A stretch of DNA of 64,000 bases from a virus. The stretch is from IMG/VR virus record IMGVR_UViG_3300045988_160012; one strand, given 5' to 3'. Numbering within the stretch: the stretch's first letter is position 1; the number at the start of each line of letters is the position of its first letter. The translations under genes and the position numbers were made by a program. The notes under the pieces were generated by a model. That model was not told the DNA's origin. It made no database searches and worked only from the letters and a program-made list of their open reading frames with translations. Shown here piece after piece: positions 6,955-63,303 of this stretch.

Positions 6955-6995
6955 ATTTAATCCTCTCTAGCATATAACCTTAATAGTTTGCTGTT

Positions 6996-7403
6996 TTACT
7001 CTAACATAGCTGCCAGACTATCAATCTGAAGTTCTGTCTGCTTATCGTCAGATAATAAAGCTGTAAGCTGCTTTTCTAACATATCCAGTTTTTTCTTTTC
7101 AGATTTATAGCTTTTAACTTCAAGATAAGCTTTTACGTCTACAATCCAATCATCTAAAGAGCTTCCAGAAATCTCTAATGTAGCAGTAGAAATTCCTAAA
7201 TCCTTTGCGGATAATGCAATACTATTCAGTTTAATCAATAACATTTCATCGGAATCTACGTGCAAATTATAAGTAACTTTATCCAATACCAATAAACAGT
7301 TAGTTACTGGATTGAATCTTGTTGGTTTAGATGCAAGTTCTTTTCTTTTGTTCTCGATAGTTTTCTTCAGTTCCATAATTCTTTCATCATTTTTCTGTGC
7401 CAT
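6996..7403 (-). CDS. hypothetical coiled-coil protein
   Basis: ORF; heptad-like composition. Confidence 0.3.
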   Translation of the reverse strand: MAQKNDERIMELKKTIENKRKELASKPTRFNPVTNCLLVLDKVTYNLHVDSDEMLLIKLNSIALSAKDLGISTATLEISGSSLDDWIVDVKAYLEVKSYKSEKKKLDMLEKQLTALLSDDKQTELQIDSLAAMLE

Positions 7404-8667
7404 AATAATACCTCTTTTCTAAATATCCATTTTTTAAATAATGCTCTCCATATACAGGATGCACATATTTATAACACTCTTCGATAGTATCAAAATATTT
7501 TTTAACTGTTTTTTCTCTTGTCTTTGTTACTGTTTCATTTGAATACCATTTTTTCTCTTCATAAGATTCATAAACGGTTTCGTAAATGTACCATTTCTTA
7601 TTTTCTCTTGAATATAAGATTTCTTTACTACTAAGTAATTCATCTTTTTCTATTCCTACTTTAAAAGAATAGTTATAATTTCTTTCAAAAGATTTAACTA
7701 TTGTTGCATCTGCCATAGCAATAAATTTGTCATATGGTAAATCAATAAGCTTATCTGCTTCAAAATCTTCTTGACAATATTCAGCATTGCTATATAACAG
7801 ATTAACCATATCTGGATAATCTGGTCTTTTTTCAAGAACCATATGGGTGAACTTTCTTGTGATTGCTTTCATATGTGTTACTCTATTTTCTCTATACCAA
7901 CTATATTCAGCATTAGGATTTCCAAGAAGAATAAAGAAAAATTCATTCTTTTCTTCTTGAATACTTCTATAGTAAGTAAGATTTTTATTATAATAACTAC
8001 TTCGACATTTACTGATTAACCATGTATCATCAAGTGGATATTCATATCCTTCTTTTCTGTTGTTACTATAATAGTAACTATGACTTTCATGATAATAATA
8101 ATTTGACTGATTTTTCCAAGGTTTTGATTTCCCCATATATACATATTGATTACCATTCAAATCTTCATATGTAGCACCAATTATCAAATCTCTTGCTTTA
8201 ATAAATGTATTGTTATGAATGACTTTGTTCTTTTCCTGAATTTCTTTATAGTCCGAAGATTCTACAGGTACAAGAACTAATTCTTTGCCATCCCAACCAT
8301 AAACAAATTCACCTTCAAGTCCTTTACCTTTGATACAGTTGCAATTTTCTAAAATCCACAACAGATTTGGAATTGTAATTTCAAACTCAAATCCTCTAGG
8401 GTCATATACTCTGGTGTATGTCTGTCTAGGATTCCAACCATATCTATCTCCACCAACCTTCTTATTTAATACAAATCCTTCCATTGGCTCATTATCATAG
8501 ATTTCATTTGGAATATTTTCATCTCTCCAGCCTTGCCATGAAGTCTCTTTTCGTAATTTACCTTTTTCATCAAAGTAAATTACATATGCCAACTTTCCTG
8601 TATAGGTATCTTCACGTTCCTGAAACCCTACATTAATTTTAGTTGGTACAAAAATATTTGTGTTCAT
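7387..8667 (-). CDS. hypothetical Tyr-rich protein (426 aa)
   Basis: ORF; no recognisable motif. Confidence 0.3.
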   Translation of the reverse strand: MNTNIFVPTKINVGFQEREDTYTGKLAYVIYFDEKGKLRKETSWQGWRDENIPNEIYDNEPMEGFVLNKKVGGDRYGWNPRQTYTRVYDPRGFEFEITIPNLLWILENCNCIKGKGLEGEFVYGWDGKELVLVPVESSDYKEIQEKNKVIHNNTFIKARDLIIGATYEDLNGNQYVYMGKSKPWKNQSNYYYHESHSYYYSNNRKEGYEYPLDDTWLISKCRSSYYNKNLTYYRSIQEEKNEFFFILLGNPNAEYSWYRENRVTHMKAITRKFTHMVLEKRPDYPDMVNLLYSNAEYCQEDFEADKLIDLPYDKFIAMADATIVKSFERNYNYSFKVGIEKDELLSSKEILYSRENKKWYIYETVYESYEEKKWYSNETVTKTREKTVKKYFDTIEECYKYVHPVYGEHYLKNGYLEKRYYYGTEK

Positions 8668-8668
8668 T

Positions 8669-8839
8669 ACTTCTCACTTCCTTTCGCAGTATTTTTAATC
8701 AAAATTGCTTTCCATGTTTTACAATTACAAGAAGATGATTCAATAGAATATTCGTGTTCCAAATAATTATTTAGTGTATTCTCAAATACAATTCTGTTCT
8801 CTTCTTTAATTGTTACAACTGATTGTGTATATTTCATTA
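8669..8839 (-). CDS. small hypothetical protein (56 aa, not in ORF track)
   Basis: RBS gaaagaaaggataaataATG lies immediately downstream of promoter motif copy at 8857-8874. Confidence 0.35.
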
Positions 8840-8865
8840 TTTATCCTTTCTTTCAATGTATAACC

Positions 8866-9555
8866 TTAATTACTATAATGCTTTTTAACTTCTTTCTCAA
8901 AATAAGAAAGAAATTCATCCCAGAATCCTTTTGTCCAGATATATTCTTTTATCTGTCTACTCATCAGGCACTTTTTCATATCTGATTTAACATCAAACGA
9001 TTTGTCTTTTTTCTTACACTTCTTTTCAAGCACAGCAGTTAAAAAGGAAGTGGTAATCTTATGGATAATAAGTAAATCAGATTTATCAACCTGAGCTGAA
9101 ATAGCTTTGTATCGTTCAATTTCTTCTGAAGGTATTTCTACATTTTTTGCCTTTGGAAGATTCTTGACACTAAATGGACTTATGTTTGCTCCGCTGGTTT
9201 TTGCCTTTAAAAGAATGGCAATTGTATCAATATCCTTTGCTTTAAATCTAAATTCGACTTCTATATCAGATTCTCTATATTCGATATATTCAATCTGCTG
9301 CTCATCTAACACCTTCTTAATGTTTCTACCTCTACCAATAGAAGGAATATAAGCTGTCAACCAGACTACTTTGGAATTGCCATTCATATGACCGTATGTA
9401 TAAATCTTATTTCCATTCTGGCAAGCAATGTAAATATCATCATATCCCTCCATGATTTCTCCTCTTTTATTTCTAGGAATATCATGTGTGTTTTGGTCTA
9501 ATTCAGGAAGGATTCTGTATGTACCTTTATATTTCATTAAATAATGATTTGCCAT
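8866..9555 (-). CDS. hypothetical protein
   Basis: ORF. Confidence 0.3.
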   Translation of the reverse strand: MANHYLMKYKGTYRILPELDQNTHDIPRNKRGEIMEGYDDIYIACQNGNKIYTYGHMNGNSKVVWLTAYIPSIGRGRNIKKVLDEQQIEYIEYRESDIEVEFRFKAKDIDTIAILLKAKTSGANISPFSVKNLPKAKNVEIPSEEIERYKAISAQVDKSDLLIIHKITTSFLTAVLEKKCKKKDKSFDVKSDMKKCLMSRQIKEYIWTKGFWDEFLSYFEKEVKKHYSN

Positions 9556-15512: not shown

Positions 15513-15548
15513 ACATTTGTTGTCCTCACTTTCTGGCTTTGCATTTTG

Positions 15549-15624
15549 TGTATAACCTTAATAGTTATATATAAAAATAATTTCGCCCACTATTATTATA
15601 CGAGAATTACCTTAATTTTAGGAA

Positions 15625-15625
<1 letters not shown>
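15549..15625 (-). promoter_or_regulatory. tandem promoter region: sigma70-like element copy 2 (15587-15625) followed by phage 18-bp motif (15549-15566) upstream of nrdD
   Basis: Same ~40-bp element as at 205-248 and 32430-32472; motif TGTATAACCTTAATAGTT. Confidence 0.45.
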
Positions 15626-18227: not shown

Positions 18228-19144
18228 ACATACCTCGCTTTCTTTATAAAATTATTTTTCTTATAATAAAAGGCATACTGTTGAAGGATTCCAGCTTTAT
18301 CACTAATCATCCATTCAGGCATAATCCCTTTATATACATTGTCAATTATTTGTTGCATATGTGTGTCAATAGGACAAGCTTCTAATTGATGCAAAGCAAA
18401 TAAGCATACACAGTTCACAATCTTGTTTCCAACACCTGTAATCTGTGTAAAAATGGTTTTTGCATAAGGATATACAGACAAATATGTAATATCGTTTTTA
18501 TATGCATATTTCTTATCATTTGTAAGACTCATATTTTTTACAAACCATTTAGCAGCTTCAGACACATAAACATCTCTATATCCCAATCCACAATCTCTCA
18601 GCTCCTCTATTGATACGGTGCTAAGTCTTTCTGCTGTAGGAAAAGCATATTCATTTATAGGTTTATCAGTAAAACCTTCGCCAGAAATCGGATTCCCATA
18701 TCTATAACATAAAGTTTCAACACATTTTTTAATGTTAGGAATACTTTTTCTTTGTGAGATAATAAAGGTTATAAGCATTTCCCATAAATCCTGTTTCAAA
18801 ATTCGGATACCACTACCATATTGAATTGCAGCAGACAAAAATTCATCTGATTTTGCATCCTCTTTTATTTTTGAATAATCAGTATCTATATCAAAATACT
18901 CTTTCCAAATCTCCTCATACTCTTCTTTATCACACGAAAAAATGACAGTGCTTAGATGTTGTGATACTTCAACATATCGCCCAAAAGCTACTATTGAGTA
19001 TGCTCCTTGACCAATATAATTCATTCTAAAACACTGTCCTGATTCTGCGATTTGACCTAAATCCATATCTTTTACTTCGATAGAATACATAATAATCACC
19101 TCCTTATTTTGATGTATAACCTTAATAGTATGGTAAGAAAACAA
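18224..19144 (-). CDS. HhH-GPD DNA glycosylase (Ogg/8-oxoguanine glycosylase-like)
   Basis: GVGNKIVNCVCLFALHQLEACPIDTH matches the HhH-GPD motif with its Lys and Asp. Confidence 0.55.
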
Positions 19145-19211
19145 ACACTTTTCGTGTTTTGCCTATATCTTACCATACTATTATATAGATGTCAAGTAGT
19201 TTTATGTAGTT

Positions 19212-21593: not shown

Positions 21594-21629
21594 TTACATA
21601 TTTCCCTTCTTGGTGTATAACCTTAATTA

Positions 21630-24600
21630 TTATTGTTTTTTAATTACTTCGTACTCTTCAAGAATTGGCTCTTGTTCATCTGTACTTGTCCACTGTCCGT
21701 TAATCAATTTCTTTTTAAAATCCATTGTGAATCCTTCTATTTTTAAAATTGAAAACTCTCCAAATGGTTGTTGTTTGTATATTTTACTTTGTTTGATTCG
21801 GGTTTTTGTTTCTTCACCTGTTTTTATATTACGCAAAGTCATATATGGTTTGGTTTCATCTTTGTATGTCTTGTAATCCACTACAATATAGTAATAATCT
21901 GCCATTTTAGGATTTACATATGTAACATACTCCAAATATTCTTTTTCAAATCGCACCTGTTCCATAATTGACATTGATTCATCGGCAATTCTATTTGCCA
22001 TTTCATTCAATAGACCTACATTATCAATCTGACTATACTGTTTTGCAGTTTCTTTTCCAGCATATTTTTTCACAAGATATTCTGTTAAACCATATTCAGC
22101 ATAGCTTTCTAACTTATCTTTTTTGATTTGACTGCACGTTCTTAATGATGGCAAAATAGTTTTAGGACTCTTTGCTCCTTCTGGTTTCATTTTAATACCA
22201 TTATAAAGTTTGATAATCTGTAACAGTTTTTTATTTTTACCAAATTCAGAAAAGAAGTCTAAGCCTGTCAGAATATTTAACTGTCTATTATTGACAGAAG
22301 TTTTCGCAATATCATCTAACAAATCAATAAATGACGTATATTTCTTTTGTTTAGAAACCTCTAACAATTCCTTTGCAATAATGGAATTACAATATTTTAT
22401 AGATGCAATACCTTTATAAATAGAGTTTGTTTCTCTCTCAATAGCATATTCATCCATAGATTTGCCAAACTGAATAGGCTTAATTTTGATGTCATTCATT
22501 CTTGCCAATTCAATACCATAATTGGTATCATCTTTATTTTCAGCTCTGTTAAGATACGCAGCAACAAATTCTATTGTATAATAGGTTCTCAACCACACAC
22601 ACTCATAACCATTCATAGAATAAGCGGTAGAATGATTATATCCAAATTGATACTCGGATGAATCCTGTACAATCTGTACAAATTGTTTTGCTTCCGCTTC
22701 TGCTTTAACTCTTGGTTGTGATGAATGACTACAATATCCTTCCAGAATCTTAGGAAGCTGTTGCTTTAACAACTCTTTGTCCTTTTTACCAATAGCTCTT
22801 CGTGTAGTATCTGCTGCCGAACCAGTAAAACCACAAATATCTGTCAAGAATTTAATGGTATCTTCCTGAAAAATAAGATAGCCATTGTTACTTGCAAGTA
22901 AATCATCAATTTCCTTGGAAGGGTTATCATTATGCTCTCCAGCAATCATTCTATCCCTATATGATTTTCCTGAAGGTCTAAGAGCTGCATTAACCATACT
23001 CATATGGTTGATAGTATTTGGTTTGAAATCTTTTAACAATGAGAAAGCATAATCACCCTCAAATTGGAATACTCCCTGTTGAGCTGTAATCATATTATGC
23101 CATACCTTTGGGTCATTCCAATTCAATTCGTATGACTTCGGATATGGAATACCAGCATATTTACAAGCATCTTTGATAATACCTACTGTTTTTAATCCAA
23201 GAATATCAAACTTAACATAGTTCAATGAATCTACTGCCTTCATTGCACAAATGGAAACAGGCATTTCTGAATCTCCATCCTTATAGAAAAGTCCAATATT
23301 ATCTGCCAAAGTAATCGGAGAACCGATAATACCACTTGGATGAGTACCTTTTGCAACGATAGTATCTTTCAGACCATTCAAGTAATAGAATAAATCCTGA
23401 TTTTCTGCAATTAATTTATCATATGATTTTTTGATAACGTCAAGCTGTTTTCTCTGTTTTTCTTGTGCAATATGAAGCATATATACTTTGTGATTATCAA
23501 ATGAAATAGAACCTGTTTCGGTTTCTCCATTTTCTACAAGTTCCTCAGTATTTACTTCTTCCTGTACAATTTTGGAATATCTTGAAAAGTATTCATCAAA
23601 TTTGTTCTTGATTTCCATTACTTTATCAAGGTCTTTATATCCTAAACCGCCAGCAAGCACATCAATACATCCTCTATCCTGTAAAGTTGAAAATGCAGCA
23701 ATATAAGCTGTTTTCTCAGGAGTAAATCGTTTGATAATATATGCATAAACTTTTTCTCTATCCTCACCAGCAAAGTCTACATCAATATCACCAAGAGAAA
23801 TTCTATCTTCATTACAGAATCGTGAAAATACAGTATTCCACACCATAGGGTCTACATCGGTAATATTTGTAATAAAAGCAATCATACTACCACATACAGA
23901 ACCTCTTCCTGTACCACAAGGAATATCATTATCTTTAGCCCATGAAATCAACTCTGACATAAACATCATAAATGATTCCATACCAAGCTTACACATAACC
24001 TTAAATTCCTCAATAATCTTTTTCTTATACTGTTCAATTATTTCTGCATCAGTATGTGTATTCGCCCATTCAAGATTTTCTTTATAGTTCTCATAAATTT
24101 CTCTTTCGGACTCATCTGTAGGTGTAATTGGATGTTCTGAAAAATATTCATTACACTCTTTCAATATTTTGGAAGGTAATTTCAACTTTCCATTTCTACA
24201 CTTTTCATCAAAGTTAGTGTAAATCAACTGTTTCCACTGTTCTCTTACATTATCACCATATAATGTAGGATACTTAAATGCTTTATCTAAAGTAAATTCT
24301 TCTACCATATCTGCAAGCACATTAGTATTTCTAATAGCTTCCATATACACTTCTTCTGGTAAACAATTCTGGGCTTTAAATGCAGCAATCAACTCTTCAT
24401 ATGTTTTCCAAGTTAAATCAAATTCGTCCTCTTCACCATAAAAGCTATCTTTGTATTTCTGTAAAATCTTTCTGCACTCTGCTTTATATGGACTGGATGA
24501 ATGTGTATCTGTACCAGCAATAAGCGGAATACCTGTTTTCTTGCTATAGAAATACATTTTCTTATTGTAAATTTTCTGATTTTCACAATTATGATATTGT

Positions 24601-25277: not shown

Positions 25278-26486
25278 TCAAATATTATCAAGCCATGATA
25301 AATCCACGTTTTCAGTGTCTTTATGATGTATAACCTTATTAGTTTGTGCTACTGGACTACTTTCTACAGTAGAACTACCAACACCAGAAAATACATCTCC
25401 GTCTTTAGCTTTTTCTGTTCTTTCAAGATATGCTTTATATGGTAAATGTAAATTTGGAGAATAGCCACAAAGCGTAGAAAAATAATAACTCTGAGCTTCA
25501 ACAGATTCATCTGTATCCCAAAATGCTTTATCGCTATGAGTCTCCTCATAATCCTTTTCTCTTAATTCAATATCATTAATAGTGGAAATAATAGTTTCTT
25601 TCCATCTATTGATAAGTTCGTCTGTCAGTGGTACATATACATAACAATCAGAAATAATATATTTCTCCTGTACTTCTTTCGGCAAACATTTAATATCATT
25701 TGTATCTAAAAGCAGTTTAAGATAATCGTCTACTTGGTCAGTATATCCTAATTTCTTTAACCACATCTTTGCATTTGTTTGAAGGCTTTCACCAATTTTA
25801 CATCTCTCAACCTCTCTGGTTTTTACTGCACCATTCGCCTGTTCATATTGAATAGAAACATATTTAAGGAAATTCCAGCAAATATGAATCTTATCCATTG
25901 GAACTCCCTGTTGGTTTAAACCAATTGCATATACAACTAACTGACCGCACTCATTCTCAGCCTTTTTGCCTTTATATATGCTGCTTGTTTTCCAATCCAA
26001 AATATTGAAATTTCCTTCATCATCCTTAAAACAAACATCAATATACCCCTGAAATAAATTATCACCGATTTTGGCTTTCACAAATTGTTCAATAACAGGT
26101 TTATATTTTAATGGAGTATGATTCATAAAGAAATGTTTCAGATTTTCATAATACTTCTGAGAAATCTTATCATTTTTTTCAGGTGAATTTCTATCGAATT
26201 TCATTTCCGCAATATTAAATGCGGTAACCCAACCATCTTCAAAATCGTCTATCATTTGCTCATATGGTAATTTGCCAGTATATCTTCTTTCCATAATATC
26301 ATGTGCAATACCACCTGTTGTTGTATAAATACAGTCAGTTCTATCTTCTTTTTTATGAAGAATATACTTCAAAAAATACTCATATGGACTTGTATGAAAG
26401 CAATTCCATTTTGACCAAGACCATATTCTACTGACTCCCTCATTTTTCATAAGAGTTTGCAGTTCTTCACTTGTTAATCTTGCCAT
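25278..26486 (-). CDS. PD-(D/E)XK family nuclease (RecB/Cas4-like exonuclease)
   Basis: GYIDV...ILDWKTS arrangement (D...D-x-K core). Confidence 0.45.
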   Translation of the reverse strand: MARLTSEELQTLMKNEGVSRIWSWSKWNCFHTSPYEYFLKYILHKKEDRTDCIYTTTGGIAHDIMERRYTGKLPYEQMIDDFEDGWVTAFNIAEMKFDRNSPEKNDKISQKYYENLKHFFMNHTPLKYKPVIEQFVKAKIGDNLFQGYIDVCFKDDEGNFNILDWKTSSIYKGKKAENECGQLVVYAIGLNQQGVPMDKIHICWNFLKYVSIQYEQANGAVKTREVERCKIGESLQTNAKMWLKKLGYTDQVDDYLKLLLDTNDIKCLPKEVQEKYIISDCYVYVPLTDELINRWKETIISTINDIELREKDYEETHSDKAFWDTDESVEAQSYYFSTLCGYSPNLHLPYKAYLERTEKAKDGDVFSGVGSSTVESSPVAQTNKVIHHKDTENVDLSWLDNI

Positions 26487-30831: not shown

Positions 30832-30849
30832 ATATCTCTCCTCTGTTAA

Positions 30850-30867
30850 TGTATAACCTTAATAGTT
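30850..30867 (-). promoter_or_regulatory. representative copy of phage 18-bp promoter-like motif TGTATAACCTTAATAGTT (gene strand: AACTATTAAGGTTATACA)
   Basis: At least 16 intergenic copies, each within ~15-20 nt of a minus-strand RBS/ATG. Approximate plus-strand starts: 6971, 8857, 15549, 19113, 21614, 25327, 30850, 32409, 36513, 42864, 47134, 48035, 49184, 56723, 59279, 62687. Confidence 0.55.
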
Positions 30868-30877
30868 ATACTGTATT

Positions 30878-32379: not shown

Positions 32380-32408
32380 ATTGTCTTACCTCTCTTTCTT
32401 TTATTTGA

Positions 32409-32472
32409 TGTATAACTTTAATAGCTTACAATATTATTATACGAGAATTACTTTATTTTTAGGAACTACTTT
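32409..32472 (-). promoter_or_regulatory. tandem promoter region: sigma70-like element copy 3 (32430-32472) plus phage 18-bp motif (32409-32426)
   Basis: Same architecture as 15549-15625. Confidence 0.45.
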
Positions 32473-36495: not shown

Positions 36496-36521
36496 ATATA
36501 ACCTCCTTGTGATGTATAACC

Positions 36522-36992
36522 TTAATTGTTAAGTAATCTATCAACAACCTGATTGATTAATTTGCTGTCTGCCTTTCCTTTTAATTTCGGCATAATATTT
36601 TTCATAACCATCCCTTTAATCTTTGGACTGATTTTTACATTGACTCCTGTAAGCTCAATAAGTTCACTCTCAATATACTTTTCAAGCTCATTTTCAGTCA
36701 TTTGAGTAGGTAAATATTCACTTAAAATTCCAATTTTAAGTGTAGTAGAAGCATACAAATCAGTATTTTCCTTACCCTTTAAAGCGTCCTTCGTCTGATT
36801 GAGCTGCTTAACTTCTTTTTGAATTGCCTGAAGAATAACATCATTAGGAATATCTTCAGTAACATTGGTCGGATTCTTTTCTTTTACAATAGCTTTCGCT
36901 TTATCAACCACCATCTTTAATACATCTCTCTTTTCTGTATCTTTGTTCTTCATAGCAGTCTTAATCTCTTCTTTAATCTGTAAATATAACAT
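36522..36992 (-). CDS. GatB/YqeY-domain protein
   Basis: Overall YqeY-like pattern (MLYLQIKEEIKTAMKNKD..RD.LK..). Confidence 0.55.
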   Translation of the reverse strand: MLYLQIKEEIKTAMKNKDTEKRDVLKMVVDKAKAIVKEKNPTNVTEDIPNDVILQAIQKEVKQLNQTKDALKGKENTDLYASTTLKIGILSEYLPTQMTENELEKYIESELIELTGVNVKISPKIKGMVMKNIMPKLKGKADSKLINQVVDRLLNN

Positions 36993-39020: not shown

Positions 39021-40169
39021 TTACTCTATTAATAATTGAATCTGCTTCTGCATTTCATGTATAACCTTATCAGTTATATCTGTTGTAATATTGTCTGGTA
39101 GAGTAATTCTTAACGACTTTACTGCTTCTTCATCAGACAATCCTATAGCTTTCAATACATGAGATGGCACTGAGGAATGTGAATTACAAGCTGAACCAGC
39201 GGATACATATATATCACACAAATCCAACAAGTATATCATTGCTTCCCCCATTACATTTTGATTAAAAGTAATATTGATATTATTGGGAAGTCTGTCAGTA
39301 TATTGACCATTAAGCTTGCAACCAATTTTATCTAACAATTCACCAATCATATAGTCTCTTTGTTTTATTGTTGTAAGATATTTTTTCTGTTTCATATCTA
39401 CAGAACATAATTCAACTGCTTTAGCAAATCCCATTATATAAGGAAGGTTCTCTGTTCCACCTCTTAATCCATTCATTTGACTACCGTAAATCAACGGACT
39501 GATTTTTACATCTTCTTTTTTATATAAGATACCAATTCCTTTTGGTGTACCAATCTTATGTCCACTGGCACTCAACATATCAATTTTAGATGCCTTCACA
39601 TCAATTGGAATATGACCAAAAGCTTGTACTGCATCAGTATGAAATATTGCTCCATATTTATGTACAGTTAAAGCAATATCGTGAATATGTTGAATTGTTC
39701 CAATTTCATTATTTGCATATTGAATAGACACTAAAATATCTTCTCCACTTTTCTGTGAAATCACATATTTTAAAGTATCTTCTAAAGCTCTTAAATCAAT
39801 ACAACCGTTTGTATCAACATCTATAAAGTGAACATCAACCCCAATACCATCCACACATGACAATATAGATTTATGTTCGATTACAGAAGTTATAACTGAA
39901 GGTATTCTACCCTTTCTCAAACGATTTTGTACAAAGCCCTGTATCGCCCAACAATTACTTTCGCTTCCACAACTGGTAAAATATACTTCATACATTTCTG
40001 AATTAAGGAAGTGTGCTACTGTTTCTTTTGCAGATTTTAATGCATTAGCAGCTTCTTGAGCTGGACTATATAAAGATGATGGATTATACCACATATCCAT
40101 ATAAGAATAAATTGTATCTAAAACCTCTTTCTTTGGTTTAGTTGTTGCTGCTTCATCCAGATATATCAC
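39021..40169 (-). CDS. cysteine desulfurase (class V aminotransferase, IscS/NifS/DndA-like)
   Basis: MIYLDEAATTKP start; PLP-lysine region SASGHKIGTPKGIGILY; active-site Cys region SAGSACNSH. Confidence 0.8.
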   Translation of the reverse strand: MIYLDEAATTKPKKEVLDTIYSYMDMWYNPSSLYSPAQEAANALKSAKETVAHFLNSEMYEVYFTSCGSESNCWAIQGFVQNRLRKGRIPSVITSVIEHKSILSCVDGIGVDVHFIDVDTNGCIDLRALEDTLKYVISQKSGEDILVSIQYANNEIGTIQHIHDIALTVHKYGAIFHTDAVQAFGHIPIDVKASKIDMLSASGHKIGTPKGIGILYKKEDVKISPLIYGSQMNGLRGGTENLPYIMGFAKAVELCSVDMKQKKYLTTIKQRDYMIGELLDKIGCKLNGQYTDRLPNNINITFNQNVMGEAMIYLLDLCDIYVSAGSACNSHSSVPSHVLKAIGLSDEEAVKSLRITLPDNITTDITDKVIHEMQKQIQLLIE

Positions 40170-42850: not shown

Positions 42851-42882
42851 ATAATCCTCCTTCGGTATATAACCTTATCAAT

Positions 42883-43176
42883 TTATTCTTCTTTATCTGT
42901 AAGTGGTTGGAATCCATCATGTGAATCACTTGCAAAGAATATTTCATAGCCATCTTTTTCTTTTCGGAATATAATTGCATCTATGCTTAATCCGTCATAT
43001 TCTGAGCAATTCAACAATGTAAATGATTCTAACCAACCCATAATAATTGGTTGTGCTTTTCTGTAATCTGGATAAATACCAGACATAGCATCTTCGCAAG
43101 GTACAACAACTATATCGTCCTTATATTTAGTAATTGCTATTACATTTTCATCTTTGAATCCGAACTTCTCAAACAT
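42883..43176 (-). CDS. hypothetical protein
   Basis: ORF. Confidence 0.3.
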   Translation of the reverse strand: MFEKFGFKDENVIAITKYKDDIVVVPCEDAMSGIYPDYRKAQPIIMGWLESFTLLNCSEYDGLSIDAIIFRKEKDGYEIFFASDSHDGFQPLTDKEE

Positions 43177-44264: not shown

Positions 44265-45020
44265 TTATTCCTCGCAACAATGTTCACAATCGCCCTGACA
44301 ACACTCTCCACAACATTCCTCAGAACAACACTCTTCAGAGCCAACCATAACCGCATTTGCTAATACTTCCTGTAAGAAATATGCTTCCAGTTCAAAGATT
44401 TTTTCCTTAATCTTTCTCTTACAAATCTCGACCCCAATATCCTGACTGTAATTATCAGGAGATACTGATGCTGAAGATTCAGTAATAACAAATCCATTAG
44501 GCAGCTTGCAAGCAACTACTGTACATTTGCCAAATACTGTAGAAATATTAAACTCTGAAGCTTCCATGATTTCATTAACAGCTTCCTCAGAAACACTTAA
44601 CATACCTTCGTCAATTCCAACCGCTACTTCGGTTACTTCTGCAAAGCACTCATGAAGAATCTCTTCTGATATATAAAATGTTCTGTCTGTTACCTCTGAT
44701 ATGATTGTTGCAACTCCAAGTGAAATACCGTCAAGTTTAAAAATCTCACCAAGATTTAATCCCTCAAGACCTTCTCTCTCTTTAATCAGAACATATTTAC
44801 CATCTGAGTTTTTACTATAGTGTATAACCTTATCAGTTATAACCTTCTCAAAATATTTATCAGCTTCATCAGCCGACATTGTTCCCATATGGCAACCACC
44901 AAATCTAAAAGAGATTTCGCCATCTGGTTTTACCTCTGTAACTTCGCACTCCTCACCAATATTAGTGAAAGCTCCCATTGCCTTGATTAATCTGATTTTC
45001 TCTCCTACCTTAACTTGCAT
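44265..45020 (-). CDS. hypothetical protein with Cys/Glu-rich C-terminal tail (ECCSEECCGECCQGDCEHCCEE)
   Basis: ORF; unusual C-terminus. Confidence 0.3.
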   Translation of the reverse strand: MQVKVGEKIRLIKAMGAFTNIGEECEVTEVKPDGEISFRFGGCHMGTMSADEADKYFEKVITDKVIHYSKNSDGKYVLIKEREGLEGLNLGEIFKLDGISLGVATIISEVTDRTFYISEEILHECFAEVTEVAVGIDEGMLSVSEEAVNEIMEASEFNISTVFGKCTVVACKLPNGFVITESSASVSPDNYSQDIGVEICKRKIKEKIFELEAYFLQEVLANAVMVGSEECCSEECCGECCQGDCEHCCEE

Positions 45021-47121: not shown

Positions 47122-47144
47122 ATTACTCCTTTCAGTATATAACC

Positions 47145-47816
47145 TTAATTGTTATCACTTTCATCATCATCTTCGACTTCTTCCATCTCCATAACAACAT
47201 CACAGTTGCCACATTTAATAGCAATATCTTTCTTTCCTTTTGCAATTTGCTTACATTCAGGACAAGTATATTTGAATAAAGTTTTCTTTCGCTTAATTTT
47301 AGGCTTAACAGTAATTCCAGCTCTAAAATATTCAAATGCATTTTCGTCTGGTTTAATGTTGGTCTGAATATATTCTTTTAACTCATCTGACAAAGAGGTA
47401 TATCCCCAACCAACACTCTTTCCTTTTTCTACAACAAATCCTACCGCTTCAGCAAGGGTCTTGAATTTTTTGTTGTGGACATTTCCGCTGCAATCTTTAA
47501 TTTCATTTACTTTATTACAATAATGAACCATTTCATGTAACAAAGTTTCTACAATTTCTTCTGCTGAACGATTGCCAAACCAACGTGGGTCAATATTGAT
47601 TTCATAATATGCTTCAGGTTCTTCTGTCGTACTCTCATTTGTTTCCAGAACTTTTTTATCTTTCCATACTTTATCTACAGTAAAGTGTCCAAGCGTTGTT
47701 CCCTTGGTTTTCTGGATGGTAATAACTGGTTCTGGAAGGTTTTCATCGAACTTATCTTTATTTAAAATATTGAAAATTCGATACAACTCATCTAATGCAA
47801 TACCGATTACATTCAT
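47145..47816 (-). CDS. SprT-like zinc metallopeptidase with C-terminal zinc ribbon
   Basis: LLHEMVHY (HExxH) and CPECK...CGNCD. Confidence 0.6.
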   Translation of the reverse strand: MNVIGIALDELYRIFNILNKDKFDENLPEPVITIQKTKGTTLGHFTVDKVWKDKKVLETNESTTEEPEAYYEINIDPRWFGNRSAEEIVETLLHEMVHYCNKVNEIKDCSGNVHNKKFKTLAEAVGFVVEKGKSVGWGYTSLSDELKEYIQTNIKPDENAFEYFRAGITVKPKIKRKKTLFKYTCPECKQIAKGKKDIAIKCGNCDVVMEMEEVEDDDESDNN

Positions 47817-48013: not shown

Positions 48014-48108
48014 GGTGTCCTCCTTTCGATATGATGTATAACCTTAATTGTTACTATACATAAGATACCACACATCTATGTTGTTGTCAAGTAGTTATTT
48101 GATATAAA

Positions 48109-49145: not shown

Positions 49146-49192
49146 TTATGTGTACTCAAAGTCCTTATTTTAAAGCTTTAAAAGGTATAACC

Positions 49193-49714
49193 TTAATAGT
49201 TTACATAGCAACTAAGTTTTTTTTGTACCTTTTTCTTTAATTGTCTTTCATATCGTTCTGACACATTCATCAGAACTGCAATTTCTCTACCTTTCAGTCC
49301 TTTTAAAAGATAATGAACTAATGTTTGTTCCTGTTCGTTTAAAACACTAAGAAGGTATTCGCAATGCATATTTCCTATCACATCATCAATGACAGATTTA
49401 GAGTCAGCAAATGTCTCAGCGAAACTTTCCTCTCCCTCACTATCTGTTGATGCATCGTAAGATAGTATGCTTTCCTCTGGAATACTCCTTTTTAAACTAA
49501 TAGCTCTCCAATAATCATTAATTACATTCTGCATACAGGAATACGCATATGTTGAAAATGTATTCTCATTCTCTGAAGAATAAGAAGTTGCTGCATTACA
49601 TAACCCTATCGCAAGTAATCCATAATAATCTTCAACTACTAAATTTCTCTTTTTTGCAAAATCATAAATAAGATTATGATTTTCCTCTGCTAATTTTTGC
49701 TCTTTTTCTGTCAT
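49193..49714 (-). CDS. sigma-70 family sigma factor (small, ECF/phage-late-like)
   Basis: Region 2-like N-terminal segment. Region 4 HTH LLKGLKGREIAVLMNVSERYERQLKKKV. Confidence 0.65.
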   Translation of the reverse strand: MTEKEQKLAEENHNLIYDFAKKRNLVVEDYYGLLAIGLCNAATSYSSENENTFSTYAYSCMQNVINDYWRAISLKRSIPEESILSYDASTDSEGEESFAETFADSKSVIDDVIGNMHCEYLLSVLNEQEQTLVHYLLKGLKGREIAVLMNVSERYERQLKKKVQKKLSCYVNY

Positions 49715-53786: not shown

Positions 53787-54236
53787 ATGGACGATTTAAA
53801 CAGAAAACGACATGCCGTTTACAAACTCACTTATCATGCAGTGTTTGTTATTAAATATCGCAGAAGGGTAATGACAGAACCCATCATTACACACATGAGA
53901 CAGTATGCTACTCATCTGATTGAACAGTGTTATCAGGGAAAGCTTCTCGAACTAAATGGAGAACCCGATCACATCCATATCCTGTTTGAACTTCCTGCAA
54001 CAGCAGCTCCATCCGTTGTTGTGTGCAGTCTTAAGACCCAACTTTCAAAAGAAGTTCGAGCAAAATTTTGGGATAAGATCAAAGATAAGCTCTGGAAGGA
54101 TAGCTTCTGGTCAGACAGTTATTTCATTACCACTACCGGAGGCGCAAACATTGAAACACTAGAAAGATATATCCAAGACCAAGGGATTGAAAAACCAAAA
54201 CGAAAATATACCAAAAGACAAGCAAAGAAAATGTGA
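53787..54236 (+). CDS. tnpA: IS200-type HuH Y1 transposase
   Basis: HuH motif DHIHILF; catalytic Tyr region FWSDSYFITTTGG; RBS GGAGG. Confidence 0.85.
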   Translation: MDDLNRKRHAVYKLTYHAVFVIKYRRRVMTEPIITHMRQYATHLIEQCYQGKLLELNGEPDHIHILFELPATAAPSVVVCSLKTQLSKEVRAKFWDKIKDKLWKDSFWSDSYFITTTGGANIETLERYIQDQGIEKPKRKYTKRQAKKM

Positions 54237-54293
54237 AAATACCATTGCACTTGATATTGATTTATTTTTTATGCCGCATTCATCCCCGCCCGA

Positions 54294-55838
54294 CTATGTC
54301 GGACGAGGTTTTCTGCGGAGAACTGGATAAACCAAAATAGGTTTACCATTGATTTCAGCATATGTAGCTTTATAAGCCCAGCCCTGTGTATCTCTTGTGT
54401 TATACTGGAAACTGTAAGAACCAGCACCAAATACTACATTTTCAACTGCATAGCCAAGGTTAGTCATATGATTACAAATGCTTTCACATCTTTCAAGTGT
54501 AATAGCATCTCCGTACACCATTCCAATATGAGAGTCTAATACTTTATACCCCTTAGAGTTTATAGTTCCACCGAAAATCTCCCAAAGAATATCCAGTGTT
54601 CCTCTCTCTTCAATAGTGGCATCACGATATGTGAATGTGTCGTTCTCACCATCATTAGACCATGTAGCAATATATTTCTTATTTCCAATCTCAAGGTAAA
54701 TTGGAACAAGCTGTCCAGACGTATCTGTTTCATTGCAATAAAGTGACTGCATCATCGGACTTCTGGTATAGTAAGATTCAAATGCTTCTTTACTTTCATG
54801 GGCTTTCCACATTGGGGCAATACCACAAATAATCTCTTCTGGGTCACCGCTGTCAGGTCTAATATTGATTCTGCCTGTATGATTAAGAATTACATCCTTA
54901 TTTTTTCTAACAATATTGTCAACAAAATTCCAGTAATCATAACTGTCTGCCACAAAGCTGAAAGGTTTATTTGGATAAAGCTCTTTACACATTCTTACAA
55001 AAAATGTTTCTTCATCTCCATCTACTGCATAATTGCTTGTAGTACAAGAATGTTCAACAGATGCAGACCAGCTTCCAACATCCTCATTTTCAACATCAGC
55101 TCCATAGTAATCACAAAGATACTGAATTGAAGGGATTGTAGATGTTTTATCGAAGCTTGTTAAAAATGCAGCTCCGCTTGTAATAGCAGCATCAAGACTA
55201 GCCATACCTCTAAAAGAAAAATCGCCACAACCAACTCTCTTCCAATTCGGATTGTCAGATGTTAAAACAATATATTTTTCAATAATCTTTCTGTAAATAT
55301 AAGCTCTTGTTGCTGTTGTTGTAGGTAACCATAAATTACAAGAAAATAATGTCTCAAGATAATTTGTTACCCATGCAAAATCAGGATGTGTATTTTCGAC
55401 TGTACAACAAGGTACTCTATATGGTACTTTTGTACCTTCTGGCAAAGCCTTAATCTCAATCGGGAGATAGCCAAGTTTATGAAGTGCTTCAATATGTTCT
55501 GTATGAGCATTTTCATCAAATGTATTATGGATATACAACTTATACTCATTAAGCACTTCGTCTAACGGTCTATCAAAGAAATATTCATTAAACTGTTTTA
55601 CCAAATATTCCTTAATAAATCCCTGTAATCCAAACCAGATTACAAATTTGCTCTGAGGAAAGAATTTGTTACTACGTGGTGTCCAAGTGGAATACATCAT
55701 TGTCATTCCATCTGGATACATAGCCCGATGTGCAATTTTATAAAAATCGCATAATAACATCATATTCTTCATTTTACTTATCCTCCTTACAATGGCATCC
55801 ACAACCGCAATCACATACGTTCTCAGCATAATCAACAT
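54294..55838 (-). CDS. nadV: nicotinamide phosphoribosyltransferase-like (NAMPT/NadV or Namat) body; C-terminus truncated by IS (last ~7 codons read into IS hairpin)
   Basis: NAMPT-like length and architecture. The C-terminus ...GKPILVYPVLRRKPRPT* ends inside the IS end. Its native continuation is found at 51638-51388. Confidence 0.7.
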   Translation of the reverse strand: MLIMLRTYVIAVVDAIVRRISKMKNMMLLCDFYKIAHRAMYPDGMTMMYSTWTPRSNKFFPQSKFVIWFGLQGFIKEYLVKQFNEYFFDRPLDEVLNEYKLYIHNTFDENAHTEHIEALHKLGYLPIEIKALPEGTKVPYRVPCCTVENTHPDFAWVTNYLETLFSCNLWLPTTTATRAYIYRKIIEKYIVLTSDNPNWKRVGCGDFSFRGMASLDAAITSGAAFLTSFDKTSTIPSIQYLCDYYGADVENEDVGSWSASVEHSCTTSNYAVDGDEETFFVRMCKELYPNKPFSFVADSYDYWNFVDNIVRKNKDVILNHTGRINIRPDSGDPEEIICGIAPMWKAHESKEAFESYYTRSPMMQSLYCNETDTSGQLVPIYLEIGNKKYIATWSNDGENDTFTYRDATIEERGTLDILWEIFGGTINSKGYKVLDSHIGMVYGDAITLERCESICNHMTNLGYAVENVVFGAGSYSFQYNTRDTQGWAYKATYAEINGKPILVYPVLRRKPRPT

Positions 55839-56709: not shown

Positions 56710-56751
56710 CTTTCTTTTTAGATGTATAACCTTAATAATTATAACCGTTAT

Positions 56752-57387: not shown

Positions 57388-57438
57388 AGTTTTAACTCCT
57401 TTACATTCATATTATCGTTGATTATGATTAACCAACAG

Positions 57439-57522
57439 TGCTGGTGATGGGATTCGAACCCACACGTTGTTTCCAACAATAGATTTTGAGTCTACCTTGT
57501 CTGCCAGTTCCAACACACCAGC
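57439..57522 (-). tRNA. tRNA-Leu (anticodon CAA), type II with long variable arm; no encoded CCA
   Basis: Manual cloverleaf with acceptor GCTGGTG/CACCAGC+A, anticodon loop CTCAAAA and T-loop GGTTCGAATCC. Confidence 0.8.
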
Positions 57523-57526
57523 TTAG

Positions 57527-57599
57527 TGTGCCATATGGGATTCGAACCCATGACCCTTTGATTAAAAGTCAAATGCTCTACCAACTGAGCTAATGGCAC
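57527..57599 (-). tRNA. tRNA-Lys (anticodon UUU); no encoded CCA
   Basis: Acceptor GTGCCAT/ATGGCAC+A; anticodon loop CTTTTAA; T-arm GGGTTCGAATCCC. Confidence 0.8.
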
Positions 57600-57889
57600 A
57601 TATCCATAATGACCTTTCATAACATTATGGCGATTTGAGCGATTTCCATTTCTGTTTCATAAGAATTTTCAGATATTCTCTTATCTTACTTTTTTACTTG
57701 AATTATATATCATTTCAAATTCTAAGCTATCTTATAACGGTACTGTGTCTGGGGCTACTCCAGAGCTGCTAATTTAATAGCTGTCTAATTATCAGTGACA
57801 CTCCTTTGGTTTTACGTTTCGTTCGGGCTTTTGCTCCAATTCTTAATAATGCACACCATATAGGCGAAACGACAGGTTTTGATATTTAA

Positions 57890-57961
57890 CTGGGGTAATC
57901 GGATTCGAACCGATGTATGCAGCAGTCAAAGTGCTGTGCCTTACCGCTTGGCGATACCCCA
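57890..57961 (-). tRNA. tRNA-Gln (anticodon UUG), U1:A72; no encoded CCA
   Basis: Acceptor TGGGGTA/TACCCCA+G; anticodon loop CTTTGAC; T-arm ATCGGTTCGAATCCGAT. Confidence 0.7.
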
Positions 57962-58299
57962 ATGGGTAGATGCGGTTTTACCTATAATTAGTAGCTAATC
58001 TAATTATGTTCTCCTACCGCCTAAAGGATGCACATTTTCATTTCAACCCACGCATTGTCTGCATTTACAACACTTGAACACTGACGCAGTTCCCTACGCT
58101 ATCTTCAATATAGCTGTTTATGTTTCTCCAGTGGCGAACTGGCAATGGTTAGCCAACCCATATATAATGAAAATAGTCTAAGCGTTAGATAGATTGCTCT
58201 ATCCGCTGGAATCGTACCAGCCCATCAACTATTGTTGAATCGAACCTCGCTTTTATTTTGCTACTTATTAGCCTTGTGTAAAATCTTCAGTCAGGAACA

Positions 58300-59243: not shown

Positions 59244-59612
59244 TTTGATTCCTCCTTATTATTTAACCTTTAATATAATGTATAACCTTAACAGTTATAT
59301 CTTTAAAAGAAAGCTTTTTGAATCTCTCTTAACTTGTATTCAGTATAGCACATTGCTTACTACTTGTCAACAACTATTTTAAAGTTTTTATCACTTATTT
59401 ATGTTGTTGTTACCGTCTTTCAATACATCATAGCACACAGAAATACGGAATTTTTACACATAAAACTAATATTTTATGTGTTAGTGAATATGAAATGCCA
59501 CCTGATTTTAAGTGTGTTTGGGAAAAGCAAGTAACATCCAGCTTAAAAGTTCATGAGCATATAGCCCGAACAGAAAAGCTTTTTATGTTGCATCCAGATA
59601 AATTACATACAT

Positions 59613-62178: not shown

Positions 62179-62215
62179 TTATTTTTCCTCCTAAATTAAA
62201 TTCATACTAAGATTG

Positions 62216-62662
62216 TTAAGCTTTTGGCTTACTCATATAACGTAAAGGATTTATAAAATAATCCAATCCAGCCAATCCAGAATTACAATCTGCCAAACGT
62301 ACCCCATGTGGTTTTTCAGAATAAAAGAAATCTCCACATTTGATTACACGTTCTTTAAAATCATTCACTCTGATTTCATTGATACGTTTATACACTTCTG
62401 TAACGTCTTTCCAATTATCATCGTCATATCTTCCTGTGATAGATTTAAAATATACACCGCCTGATTTCGATGTAATTTTCAAAATAGGAACATCCTGAAC
62501 AACTTCTATTACTTCAATAGTTGTTTCATCCATATCACAAAAATTATAATTTGGAATTTTAACCACCTCGTCACTTAATGCTGCATAATTTTTAATGACC
62601 TTCTTTTCCTCAATCGGTTTAGTTCTAATTACTTTCTTTCCGATTAAACTTCTAAGATTCAT
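62216..62662 (-). CDS. hypothetical protein
   Basis: ORF. Confidence 0.3.
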   Translation of the reverse strand: MNLRSLIGKKVIRTKPIEEKKVIKNYAALSDEVVKIPNYNFCDMDETTIEVIEVVQDVPILKITSKSGGVYFKSITGRYDDDNWKDVTEVYKRINEIRVNDFKERVIKCGDFFYSEKPHGVRLADCNSGLAGLDYFINPLRYMSKPKA

Positions 62663-62703
62663 ATATAATATCCTCCTTATTATAAGTGTATAACTTTAAT
62701 AGT

Positions 62704-63303
62704 TTAAATATTTGATAAGCTCTCATATTCTTTAAGCATATCTGCCATTTCTGGATTTGTTTCTGCCAACATCTTATAAAGTACAATCTCCTGATTGTCT
62801 TTAATCATAGAGTCCATTCGCTTCTTCAGAGCATCTTTCTTCTTACGATTTTCCTTGCGTTTCTCAAAATCTGCAAAGTCAACCTTACACACAACTTCTT
62901 TTGTAACTGTAACACCATCATAGTCAACCTGAGATTTTACTTCAGATACTTTTCCTACTGAAAAACCTCTTGTTGTATCAACCAAGACACAATCATCCTT
63001 TTTGATAGTATCATCGAATAATGCAAATGCATAATCCTTTGTGGTATTAACTCCTTCAAGGAATTTAACCATTGCTACTTTGTAATTACCCTTAACTGCT
63101 GCCATATTATCTTCATACCTTTCTAAATATATTTCTTTAATCGCTAATTCTTTTCTTCCCAGTCCATTCCAATTATCAAAACAGATTTTACAACTGGTCG
63201 GAGAATAGTAATTTAAAATTGTTCCTATTTGTTCATATGATTGAATATGCTCGGCAGTAACAATTATTCTGTCACCAGATTTAAACTTTTTCATCTGTAT
63301 CAC
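62704..63303 (-). CDS. hypothetical protein
   Basis: ORF. Confidence 0.3.
   Translation of the reverse strand: MIQMKKFKSGDRIIVTAEHIQSYEQIGTILNYYSPTSCKICFDNWNGLGRKELAIKEIYLERYEDNMAAVKGNYKVAMVKFLEGVNTTKDYAFALFDDTIKKDDCVLVDTTRGFSVGKVSEVKSQVDYDGVTVTKEVVCKVDFADFEKRKENRKKKDALKKRMDSMIKDNQEIVLYKMLAETNPEMADMLKEYESLSNI

Follow-up and report, generated by a model that had tools for sequence, protein, structure and literature searches.

The 64,000-nt stretch of IMG/VR virus record IMGVR_UViG_3300045988_160012 (hereafter the window, at its full length) carries 18 copies of a nearly invariant 21-nt motif, and about 28 copies are found in the whole genome of the phage to which it belongs. The motif is linked to genes, strand-specific, composed of a single block, promoter-like and distinct from the host-type promoters of the same phage. 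It is probably a phage-specific promoter of some kind, with transcription predicted to start at the motif. A promoter is the best reading because the rules of strand and position are tied to transcription units, RNA genes stand right after the block, and the copies are conserved in relatives with concerted drift. The reader that we favor, with a probability of roughly 0.4, is a YonO-type RNA polymerase whose gene lies just outside the window. A preliminary description of the window had already taken the motif for a promoter and named as its possible readers a small phage sigma factor encoded in the window or a phage RNA polymerase. The reading as a promoter is supported and the link to the sigma factor is unproven; YonO, a better-placed candidate and at least as good a one, had been missed since it is encoded beyond the window.

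The gene-strand reading of the motif is AACTATTAAGGTTATACA, and the ~80 genes of the window are all on the minus strand. When the window was searched for the 18-mer TGTATAACCTTAATAGTT with up to three mismatches, 17 matches were found, all on the plus strand, against 0.19 expected and at most 2 obtained in shuffled windows. A weight matrix built from these copies, as the preliminary description had suggested, was run over both strands of the window and added one copy which that description lacked (42864-42884), bringing the total to 18, all on the gene strand. The scores are bimodal, ranging from 21.6 to 31.6 for the 18 sites, with 11.7 for the best other position on either strand, and the motif coordinates given previously proved correct within 1-2 nt.

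The column profile of 17 copies defines the conserved unit as a contiguous block of 21 nt (positions 0-20), W-AACTATTAAGGTTATACA-YY, of ~24.6 bits in total. Positions 7-17 (TAAGGTTATAC) are nearly invariant (A at position 10 in 2 of the 17 copies, T at position 17 in 2), T7, A8, A9 and T12 are invariant, position 10 varies in relatives, and the upstream half (TAACTATTAA) is conserved as well. No conserved -35 element was found in these 17 copies, each of the columns from -59 to -1 holding at most ~0.5 bit, and a weak T-richness at -14 to -9 is the sole upstream signal. It had been claimed that there is no room for a -35 box; room exists upstream, inside the preceding gene, and the sequence there is simply not conserved. 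Three -10-like candidates lie within the block, TAAGGT (7-12), GTTATA (11-16) and TATACA (13-18), with position 10 free in relatives, and TG occupies the extended -10 position in three copies. A short dyad, TAAC-N7-GTTA, is also present, with arms that are not conserved past 4 bp. The flanks of different copies are mutually unrelated, their folding revealed no secondary structure common to the copies, and a hairpin with a T-rich tract stands just upstream in two copies only (19111 and 59277).

Equal frequency inside genes, which had been named previously as an argument for a repeat or a recombination site, is not what was found in the window: 15 of the 18 copies lie between genes or run into the preceding stop codon by no more than 10 nt, while ~8.6% of the window is intergenic on the gene model used. 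The motif's own TAA (positions 7-9) serves as the stop codon of the upstream gene in five copies, and this overlap of a promoter-like block with the upstream coding sequence is a sign of very tight packing. Genes ending on the TAA of the motif (ATTAAGG) have their stops at 8866, 36522, 47145 and 49193, with an overlap of block and coding sequence of up to 10 nt. The distance from the end of the 18-mer to a start codon equipped with a Shine-Dalgarno sequence is 14-36 nt in 13 of the 18 copies; the remaining five have leaders of 62 to ~280 nt or no start nearby, so the earlier wording, always 15-20 nt from the ribosome binding site (RBS), was imprecise. Three copies, one more than reported before, lie truly within coding sequence: 44819 (deep), 39056 (46 nt before the stop) and 25325 (58 nt before the stop).

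The phage has been placed by protein similarity, as no match was returned by megablast when 12 kb of the window were compared with GenBank phages. The proteins of the window make up a module for replication and for nucleotide and NAD metabolism (DnaE-type polymerase, RecD2-like helicase, primase, NrdD, NAD-dependent ligase, Pnkp/RNA ligase, NAMPT and NAD synthase), and the closest cultured DnaE, with 50% identity, is that of C. difficile phage LIBA6276. Contigs of 123-139 kb from many assemblies of the human gut represent the same phage. A 130,268-bp IMG/VR contig was mostly rebuilt from overlapping loci (designated L with a number) with zero mismatches in the overlaps, and the last gap was filled from metagenome contigs of 93-98% identity. 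The genome consists of two divergent arms: an early/middle arm of ~73 kb, which holds the window, and a late arm of ~55 kb, which encodes an HU-like protein, an array of 18 tRNAs, packaging and head proteins, a 3100-aa tape-measure protein, a minor tail protein, an endolysin and a 2551-aa fibre-like protein. The phage, ~130 kb in size and taken to be temperate, is SPβ-like, with an intact orthologue of YonO that is followed by an HU-like gene in the same way as in SPβ.

Among the ~28 copies counted genome-wide, 23 lie in the early/middle arm (~1 per 3 kb), four in the late arm, and one is antisense. The strand of the motif switches with the genes, being minus at contig positions 54279, 51381, 40387 and 15288 in the late arm and plus from 57731 onward. 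Co-orientation with the local genes is the rule for the ~28 copies, the exception in the plus arm being the antisense copy at 64840, and the motif follows transcription units, not replication strands. Since no open reading frame (ORF) follows the antisense copy, the motif does not need a downstream RBS. Another copy, at 58217, is followed after 4 nt by the start of the model of a Pistol ribozyme (Rfam RF02679, 62.6 bits; L207:9620-9687, plus strand), which is located ~40 nt upstream of the next gene. As a separate observation, a small RNA could be produced from the antisense copy at 64840, convergent with an 87-aa gene of the other strand that has no Pfam match.

These two copies bear on the proposal that the motif acts at the RNA level, as a processing site or as a site bound by a regulator of translation, in the 5′ leaders of polycistronic transcripts. 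The strand specificity and the location just upstream of RBSs suit such an element, and the motif would be transcribed at the five genes that have a host-type promoter ahead of it. The proposal is nevertheless very unlikely, given that the distance to the start codon varies from 14 to ~280 nt, that one copy has no downstream ORF and another precedes a ribozyme, and that there is no conserved secondary structure; to our knowledge there is no precedent for an unstructured, nearly invariant RNA site of 21 nt in 28 copies.

Relatives of the phage were found via the sigma protein (81%, 70% and 40% identity), and in them the motif is kept at orthologous sites between intergenic flanks that have diverged. 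The core common to these relatives is TAAnTAWTAAnGTTATA, and the copy at 42864, again with diverging flanks, persists where the sigma factor is 81% and 40% identical. At position 17 the lineage of the window has C, whereas all copies have T in the two lineages with 70% and 40% sigma identity, and the change extends to the copy embedded in coding sequence, where its cost is a His-to-Tyr replacement. A change of this kind across all the copies of a lineage points to one trans-acting reader.

In ~330 kb of other AT-rich phage loci, used as a control, a single match scored at least 12 (12.5). The motif was not found in 43 kb of LIBA6276, where none of the sigma or YonO matches falls either, nor in 40 kb of Enterocloster phage CB473P1 (sigma 32% and YonO-like protein 26% identical), in which only canonical sigma-A promoter repeats were seen. 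When the regions downstream of yonO in 80 genomes were inspected, diverged copies of the motif were recovered in one metagenome-assembled genome (L300) only, with no universal k-mer. A scan of IMG/VR with the exact 14-mer ATTAAGGTTATACA was discarded, as the matches listed were mostly single chance matches in unrelated contigs, and a search of the literature for the motif sequence itself returned nothing relevant.

The comparison with relatives also speaks to the view that the motif is a site of recombination or module shuffling, a mobile miniature repeat or a replication-strand signal. In relatives, deletions of 4.9 kb and 9 kb start just after the copy at the end of the sigma gene, and the orientation of the motif flips where the arms diverge, by an ORF-free, repeat-rich region of ~1.7 kb that is a possible origin. 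The deletion breakpoints, however, lie 40-75 nt downstream of the motif and not within it; the flanks are unrelated between copies, so the motif is not a mobile repeat; and a replication-strand signal would not avoid coding sequence or hold its distance to start codons, nor would it leave one antisense copy in the plus arm. Breakpoint mapping and intergenic placement have largely refuted this view, which is the least credible of all those considered here.

Two proteins of the phage come into question as the reader. YonO is a single-chain, two-barrel, DNA-dependent RNA polymerase that in SPβ transcribes the late operon from one start site, downstream of yonO and yonN (PMC5467207), and its promoter and need for helper factors were left open in 2017 (Forrest et al. 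2017, PMC5467207); no later work on the YonO promoter was found in the literature searched. The orthologue found here is a protein of 949 aa whose gene opens the late arm on the minus strand, beyond the window (L207:2786-5635; IMGVR_UViG_3300045988_142724, 51407-54256). It matches the Pfam family RdRP (PF05183) with 36.7 bits (cutoff 23.8), shares 43% identity over 97% of the yonO product of SPβ (SPBc2), and keeps the catalytic DxDGD motif intact (QFDVDGDK at residue 591, QFDNDGDK in SPβ), features by which it is an intact YonO-family single-chain two-barrel polymerase. An HU-like gene follows yonO, as in SPβ and phage D-1873, and a class B host-type promoter (described below) lies 1.3 kb upstream of yonO, ahead of the 294-aa gene that precedes it. 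A copy of the motif stands right after the yonO stop codon and heads the late genes. Ahead of the HU, tRNA, packaging and head genes this copy, at 51381, is the sole conserved element, and no other copy precedes the HU gene, the tRNA array or the 11 kb of packaging and head genes.

The promoters of single-polypeptide phage RNA polymerases (T7, T3, SP6) are contiguous sequences of ~17-23 nt present in many near-identical copies, and a contiguous block of ~24.6 bits with no -35 element has the architecture of such promoters. The likeness to the T7 class extends to a contiguous unit of ~21 nt in many gene-co-oriented copies with few terminators between them, to an excess of information (~24.6 bits, compared with the ~13 needed to pick 28 sites in 130 kb), and to a polymerase gene driven by a host promoter that is followed by a genome-wide set of phage promoters. 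The candidate enzyme here is of the YonO two-barrel type and not of the T7 family, so that the system may work like the T7 class and does not belong to it; the start site is a predicted one, and the polymerase gene, in a further difference, bears a motif copy of its own. Two-barrel single-chain phage polymerases have been reported to use motifs of at least 15 nt (10.1101/2022.12.01.518664). In Thermus phage P23-45 each two-barrel polymerase is associated with a conserved motif of its own just upstream of the mapped starts, and relatives of P23-45 that lack the enzyme also lack its motif (PMC10770324 / 10.1101/2022.12.01.518664). That polymerase lineage and its motif sequences are different from those described here, and starts and occupancy were measured there.

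The sigma-70-family protein reported in the preliminary description is real. It has 173 aa (49193..49714, minus strand) and regions 2 and 4, matches Sigma70_r2 (PF04542) with 28.3 bits and TIGR02937 with 55 bits over residues 4-167, and thereby a generic sigma-70/ECF superfamily model. Its closest named relatives are, weakly, the sporulation sigmas K and E, and no TcdR-family model is among the matches listed for it. The earlier suggestion that it could read the motif is sound as far as a sigma factor is indeed encoded; nothing links it to the motif. A protein with region 4 would be expected to have a conserved -35 at its sites, and there is none. For this reason, region 4 in the protein and no -35 at the sites, we lean to YonO over this sigma factor with the host core as the reader.

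Reading of the motif by host core RNA polymerase with the 173-aa sigma factor is the somewhat less likely alternative. The motif would then be a promoter of the extended -10 type, with TAAGGT or GTTATA as its -10 box and a start 5-8 nt downstream, and transcription would run in three tiers: host sigma-A, the phage-sigma motif with yonO as a middle gene, and YonO at an unrecognised late promoter of its own. A sigma-70-family protein containing regions 2 and 4 was encountered in all the genomes in which the motif was seen, SPβ has YonO with no homologue of this sigma and no motif in the stretch of its yonO region, and LIBA6276 has neither sigma nor motif. Invariant T7, A8, A9 and T12 with a free position 10 follow the TAnnnT logic of -10 recognition, TG stands at the extended -10 position in three copies, and the motif 24 nt before the yonO ATG has the standard geometry, which would fit yonO as a sigma-dependent middle gene. 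GTTATA is moreover the -10 box of promoters read by BotR/TetR (TcdR-family, group 5 sigma factors), which have TTTACA at -35 (PMC3610760, PMC4031146). The motif shares with them a GTTATA core, invariant in every lineage examined, and a clostridial host range; it differs in having no TTTACA at its -35, and the window's sigma matches the generic sigma-70/ECF model and, weakly, SigK/SigE.

Apart from region 4 and the missing -35, several facts speak against the sigma factor. Single-element promoters of phage sigma factors, such as TATAAATA of T4 gp55 and TAATGTATA of phiEco32 gp36, resemble the motif in their one -10-proximal element with no -35 and in the phage-encoded sigma-like factor that reads them. 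These promoters (T4 late, phiEco32) are, however, 8-9 nt long, far shorter than a 21-nt block of ~24.6 bits, and gp55 lacks region 4, which the sigma of the window has. The sigma gene is not placed like an early gene, lying deep in motif-headed operons, 9.6 kb from the nearest host-type promoter and behind two motif copies. Its nearest named relatives are sporulation sigmas, which, when carried by phages, presumably act on genes of the host. The motif was not seen in Enterocloster phages whose sigma is ~32% identical, and no sigma homologue was found within 10 kb of yonO in other genomes.

If YonO is the reader, regulation could proceed as follows. Host RNA polymerase with sigma-A would start at the few class A and class B promoters, one of which, the class B promoter 1.3 kb upstream, would drive yonO. 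YonO would then initiate at the ~28 copies of the motif, within a few bases of its 3′ end, giving short leaders that bear the RBS, and its transcription units would span the arm for replication and nucleotide metabolism, yonO itself and the late functions (HU, tRNA array, head, tail and tail fibres). The sigma factor would be a product of the motif regulon and not its reader, and it may act on other promoters or on the host.

A number of observations weigh against YonO as the reader. In SPβ, YonO uses one promoter and transcribes late genes only (PMC5467207), whereas 23 of the ~28 motif copies lie here in the early/middle arm. The SPβ P_YonO region, located from published primers (L222 9303-9500), has no resemblance to the motif, and no weight-matrix match was obtained on the gene strand of that locus; the 14.4 kb scanned of the SPβ yonO-region stretch contain no match either. 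Since SPβ possesses YonO and has neither the sigma nor, in this stretch, the motif, the regulon may equally track the gain of the sigma. C. botulinum phage D-1873, with a YonO 47% identical and no sigma match, has a single weak motif-like site (score 12.4). In addition, T-A-A-n-G-T with T-R-n upstream reads like the extended -10 element of a sigma-70-family factor, and GTTATA is the BotR/TetR -10 box (PMC3610760, PMC4031146). The D-1873 site, with ATTAAGGTTATA before late genes, has not been counted as a copy, as a score of 12.5 arises once in ~330 kb of unrelated phage DNA.

SPβ and the present phage otherwise have much in common: orthologous polymerases, the order yonO then HU-like gene, late genes downstream on the same strand and, in the copy at 51381, an element that like P_YonO lies downstream of yonO and heads the late genes. 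They differ in that the single YonO start of SPβ lies ~0.8-1 kb downstream of yonO, after yonN, in a sequence unlike the motif, and that SPβ YonO serves late genes only in a phage with no sigma homologue, whereas most copies here precede replication and metabolism genes. Around the SPβ start site only relatives of ~83-85% identity could be aligned, too few for a consensus. Known orphan RNA motifs occupy the non-coding gap between yonO/HU and the late genes in relatives of the present phage, a DUF3800-VIII RNA in SPβ (L222:10381-10446, 47.5 bits) and a drum RNA in phage D-1873 (L223:26650-26757, 47.7 bits).

The host-type promoters of the phage fall into two classes. In class A, which represents the canonical strong sigma-A promoter, the upstream part is conserved (AACTACTTGACAAC-17-TG-extended -10, TGnTAnnAT), and two further copies besides those of the window stand at the head of the early arm. 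Scans with the sigma-70 consensus were not enriched over shuffles and were of use only for the few perfect -35 sites. Class B, AGTTCCTAAAATTAAGG-AATT-CGTATAATAAT (GTTCCT-N18-TCGTATAATAAT), is sigma-A-like, with a perfect TATAAT and a conserved spacer, and five copies are known. The preliminary description had recognized class B as host early promoters and overlooked class A. The three class B copies it listed represent a real element, on the gene strand in two cases (15592-15625 and 32433-32466) and on the opposite strand in the third (~211-244). It had also noticed two tandem arrangements of host-type and phage-type elements, upstream of nrdD and upstream of the gene at 32379, both of which are confirmed; a class A or B promoter lies 6-45 nt upstream of five motif copies, so the tandem control is real.

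One class B copy directly precedes a gene for an MrpR-like protein of 317 aa (located upstream of the window), and another precedes the yonO operon. For the 317-aa protein the scores are 20.1 bits with the C domain and 18.0 bits with the N domain of MrpR (cutoff 27), and it had no tblastn match in the phage collection. In SPβ, MrpR binds the repeated element SPBRE at ~10 early promoters, as determined by chromatin affinity purification with sequencing (ChAP-seq), and among the promoters bound are those that serve the repressor operon and yonP-yonO, with no site in the late cluster (PMC10516654). We recovered SPBRE (ACAAATACAAATAATATGTATAWAA) in the SPβ locus, where it is co-oriented with yonP, yonX and yonT, lies just upstream of their RBSs and spans the -35 to -10 of sigma-A promoters.

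The motif could accordingly be regarded as the operator of a master repressor, a counterpart of SPBRE/MrpR that silences operon starts in the prophage and takes no part in initiation. The geometry agrees, as both are repeated elements of an SPβ-like phage, gene-co-oriented and abutting the RBS (MrpR occupies 10 promoters in SPβ, PMC10516654); the 317-aa protein matches both MrpR domains weakly, and the motif contains the dyad TAAC-N7-GTTA. We consider this role improbable all the same. SPBRE overlaps complete sigma-A promoters from -35 to -10, and the motif has neither a -35 nor a -10 of sigma-A quality; SPβ has ~10 sites at early genes only, and here there are ~28, four of them in the late arm; the MrpR assignment is below threshold with no tblastn support, and the arms of the dyad are not conserved past 4 bp. 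The traits of SPBRE are here those of class B, which has the TATAAT and, like SPBRE in SPβ, precedes both the MrpR-like gene and the yonO operon. By this analogy class B fits the role of an SPBRE/MrpR operator better, the 21-nt motif does not, and class B is probably repressor-controlled.

The tandems also bring to mind a weak host sigma-A core (TATACA or TAAGGT) combined with the site of a phage activator, as for T4 MotA, in which case neither YonO nor the sigma factor would be needed. The upstream half of the motif (TAACTATTAA) is conserved where no sigma domain normally reads sequence, the tandems with strong host promoters at five genes resemble the early-plus-middle tandems of T4, and a 93-aa gene of phrog_1123 with no domain match adjoins the sigma gene. 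No candidate activator was found, however, TATACA lacks the key T at -7, and the phage already possesses YonO and the sigma factor, both dedicated to transcription and both with promoters yet to be assigned; an activator site is even harder to accept than an operator.

The positions of the motif copies and host-type promoters have been collected in Table 1.

Table 1 Copies of the 21-nt motif and host-type promoters (window coordinates, or contig coordinates where stated; distances to start codons are from the end of the 18-mer)
Feature	Sequence	Position	Strand	Context
Motif	AAACTATTAAAGTTATACACT	62685..62705	-	24 nt to ATG 62662
Motif	TAACTGTTAAGGTTATACATT	59277..59297	-	35 nt to ATG 59243; class A promoter 45 nt upstream
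Motif		56721..56741	-	heads operon PRPP-synthetase-like, NAMPT, Macro, NAD synthase, 93-aa gene, sigma
Motif		49182..49202	-	on sigma stop codon (its TAA); ~280-nt structured leader, then C5-methyltransferase gene
Motif		48033..48053	-	21 nt to TTG 48013; class A promoter ends 9 nt upstream
Motif	TATATA variant	47134..47154	-	14 nt to ATG 47121, the shortest spacing
Motif		44819..44839	-	deep in gp49_66-like gene (peptide EKVITDKVIH); shares the lineage-specific drift in relatives
Motif	AAATTGATAAGGTTATATACC	42864..42884	-	15 nt to LemA ATG 42850; absent from the preliminary description
Motif		39056..39076	-	in last 46 nt of aminotransferase gene; 62-nt leader to next gene (38996)
Motif		36511..36531	-	17 nt to Pnkp/RNA-ligase ATG 36495
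Motif		32407..32427	-	29 nt to ATG 32379; class B element directly upstream
Motif		30848..30868	-	then hairpin over first RBS/ATG (30831); second RBS/ATG ~42 nt further
Motif		25325..25345	-	in 3′ end of exonuclease gene; DnaE-type polymerase start 115 nt downstream
Motif		21612..21632	-	overlaps DnaE stop; 20 nt to RecD2-like helicase ATG 21593
Motif		19111..19131	-	22 nt to ATG 19090; preceded by class A promoter and hairpin with T-run
Motif		15547..15567	-	36 nt to nrdD ATG 15512; class B element 25 nt upstream
Motif		8855..8875	-	overlaps upstream stop codon; 19 nt to ATG 8837
Motif	TATATG variant	6969..6989	-	16 nt to ATG 6954
Motif, late arm		contig 54279	minus	24 nt before yonO ATG
Motif, late arm		contig 51381	minus	directly after yonO stop; heads HU gene, tRNA array, 11 kb of packaging and head genes
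Motif, late arm		contig 40387	minus	after 344-aa head-module gene
Motif, late arm		contig 15288	minus	between endolysin and fibre genes
Motif, antisense		contig 64840; L196:6590-6689	minus	~80 nt, then bidirectional terminator hairpin; no ORF
Class A	AACTACTTGACAACTACA-N-TATAAT	964..998	-	12/12 consensus match; no motif follows; ORF-poor downstream
Class A	TTGACA-17-TG-extended TAAGAT	19167..19201	-	
Class A	TTGACA-17-TG-extended TATCTT	48062..48096	-	
Class A-like (looser)	TTGACA-17-TG-extended TATACT	59342..59370	-	
Class B	GTTCCTAAAATTAAGGTAATTCTCGTATAATAAT	15592..15625	-	
Class B, second copy		32433..32466	-	
Class B, third copy		211..244	+	opposite strand, pointing away from array

Several features of the leaders and promoters were recorded beside these. 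The motif at 30848 is directly followed by a perfect hairpin of 10 bp, GAGGAGAGAT...GCTCTCTCCTC, which spans the first RBS and the ATG at 30831 (30789-30848), and the second RBS is the better one; the hairpin may be an attenuator, or the start codon may have been mis-called. The 280-nt leader between the sigma and C5 DNA methyltransferase genes (48912-49202) contains a 12-bp stem, TGTTGGGTGGCT...AGCCACCCAACA, and no ATG, GTG or TTG precedes motif I in the methyltransferase frame (..KGITVLSLFNGISCG..). It is in this leader, 40-75 nt after the motif at 49182, that the 4.9-kb and 9-kb deletions of relatives, or an extra methylase gene, begin. A degenerate copy of the motif with a 1-nt insertion (TAAGTAAAGGATTATACATC) is present at ~504-524. 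At the low end of the window (1-998) the class A promoter (998-964) follows the last gene of the array and precedes ~350 nt with no convincing ORF, a possible non-coding RNA.

The ORF-free region of ~1.7 kb between the arms (L207:7040-8720, contig ~55.7-57.3 kb) is first G/T-rich and then C/A-rich, is filled with the short repeats TTATATCCC, TATACAACC and CCTTTAAAG, and has two class A promoters in tandem behind it; a replication origin or an iteron field may lie here, at the strand-switch point. At the start of the late arm the HU-like gene is followed by the array of 18 tRNA genes (L207:693-2198, minus strand), and three more tRNA genes, Leu-CAA, Lys-TTT and Gln-TTG, lie in the window (57438-57962, minus strand). 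An insertion of 2.7 kb with higher G+C (window 51636-54327), found in none of the close relatives, cuts NAMPT short at its 3′ end, leaving 514 aa where relatives have 562 aa, and carries an IS200-like Y1 transposase (53787-54236, plus strand, PF01797 114 bits) and, on the opposite strand, a 594-aa ORF with no family match. Some 5-9.5 kb past the low end of the window, and still inside the phage genome, Tn7-like transposition genes (TnsB-like Mu transposase, TniB and TniQ; L131:15063-19503) separate the last part of the early arm from a block of opposite orientation that includes SSB and a reverse transcriptase.

Phage-specific promoter sets are already known, and the motif as such is unsurprising. 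Its value lies in its company, an intact orthologue of YonO, whose family promoter has been undefined since 2017. While SPβ offers one start site, this phage family offers ~28 near-identical sites with variants that arose naturally, along with another candidate reader. Should the motif be read by YonO, the copies and their lineage variants would provide the first promoter consensus for the YonO family, and YonO would transcribe most of the genome in some SPβ-like phages, not the late genes only. Such a pair would also constitute a compact orthogonal polymerase-promoter system from a two-barrel enzyme, and give a handle on promoter finding by a minimal relative of the cellular RNA polymerases that has no sigma-binding domains. 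The map of three promoter classes, A, B and the motif as class C, supplies a testable regulatory outline for a widespread group of uncultured human-gut phages.

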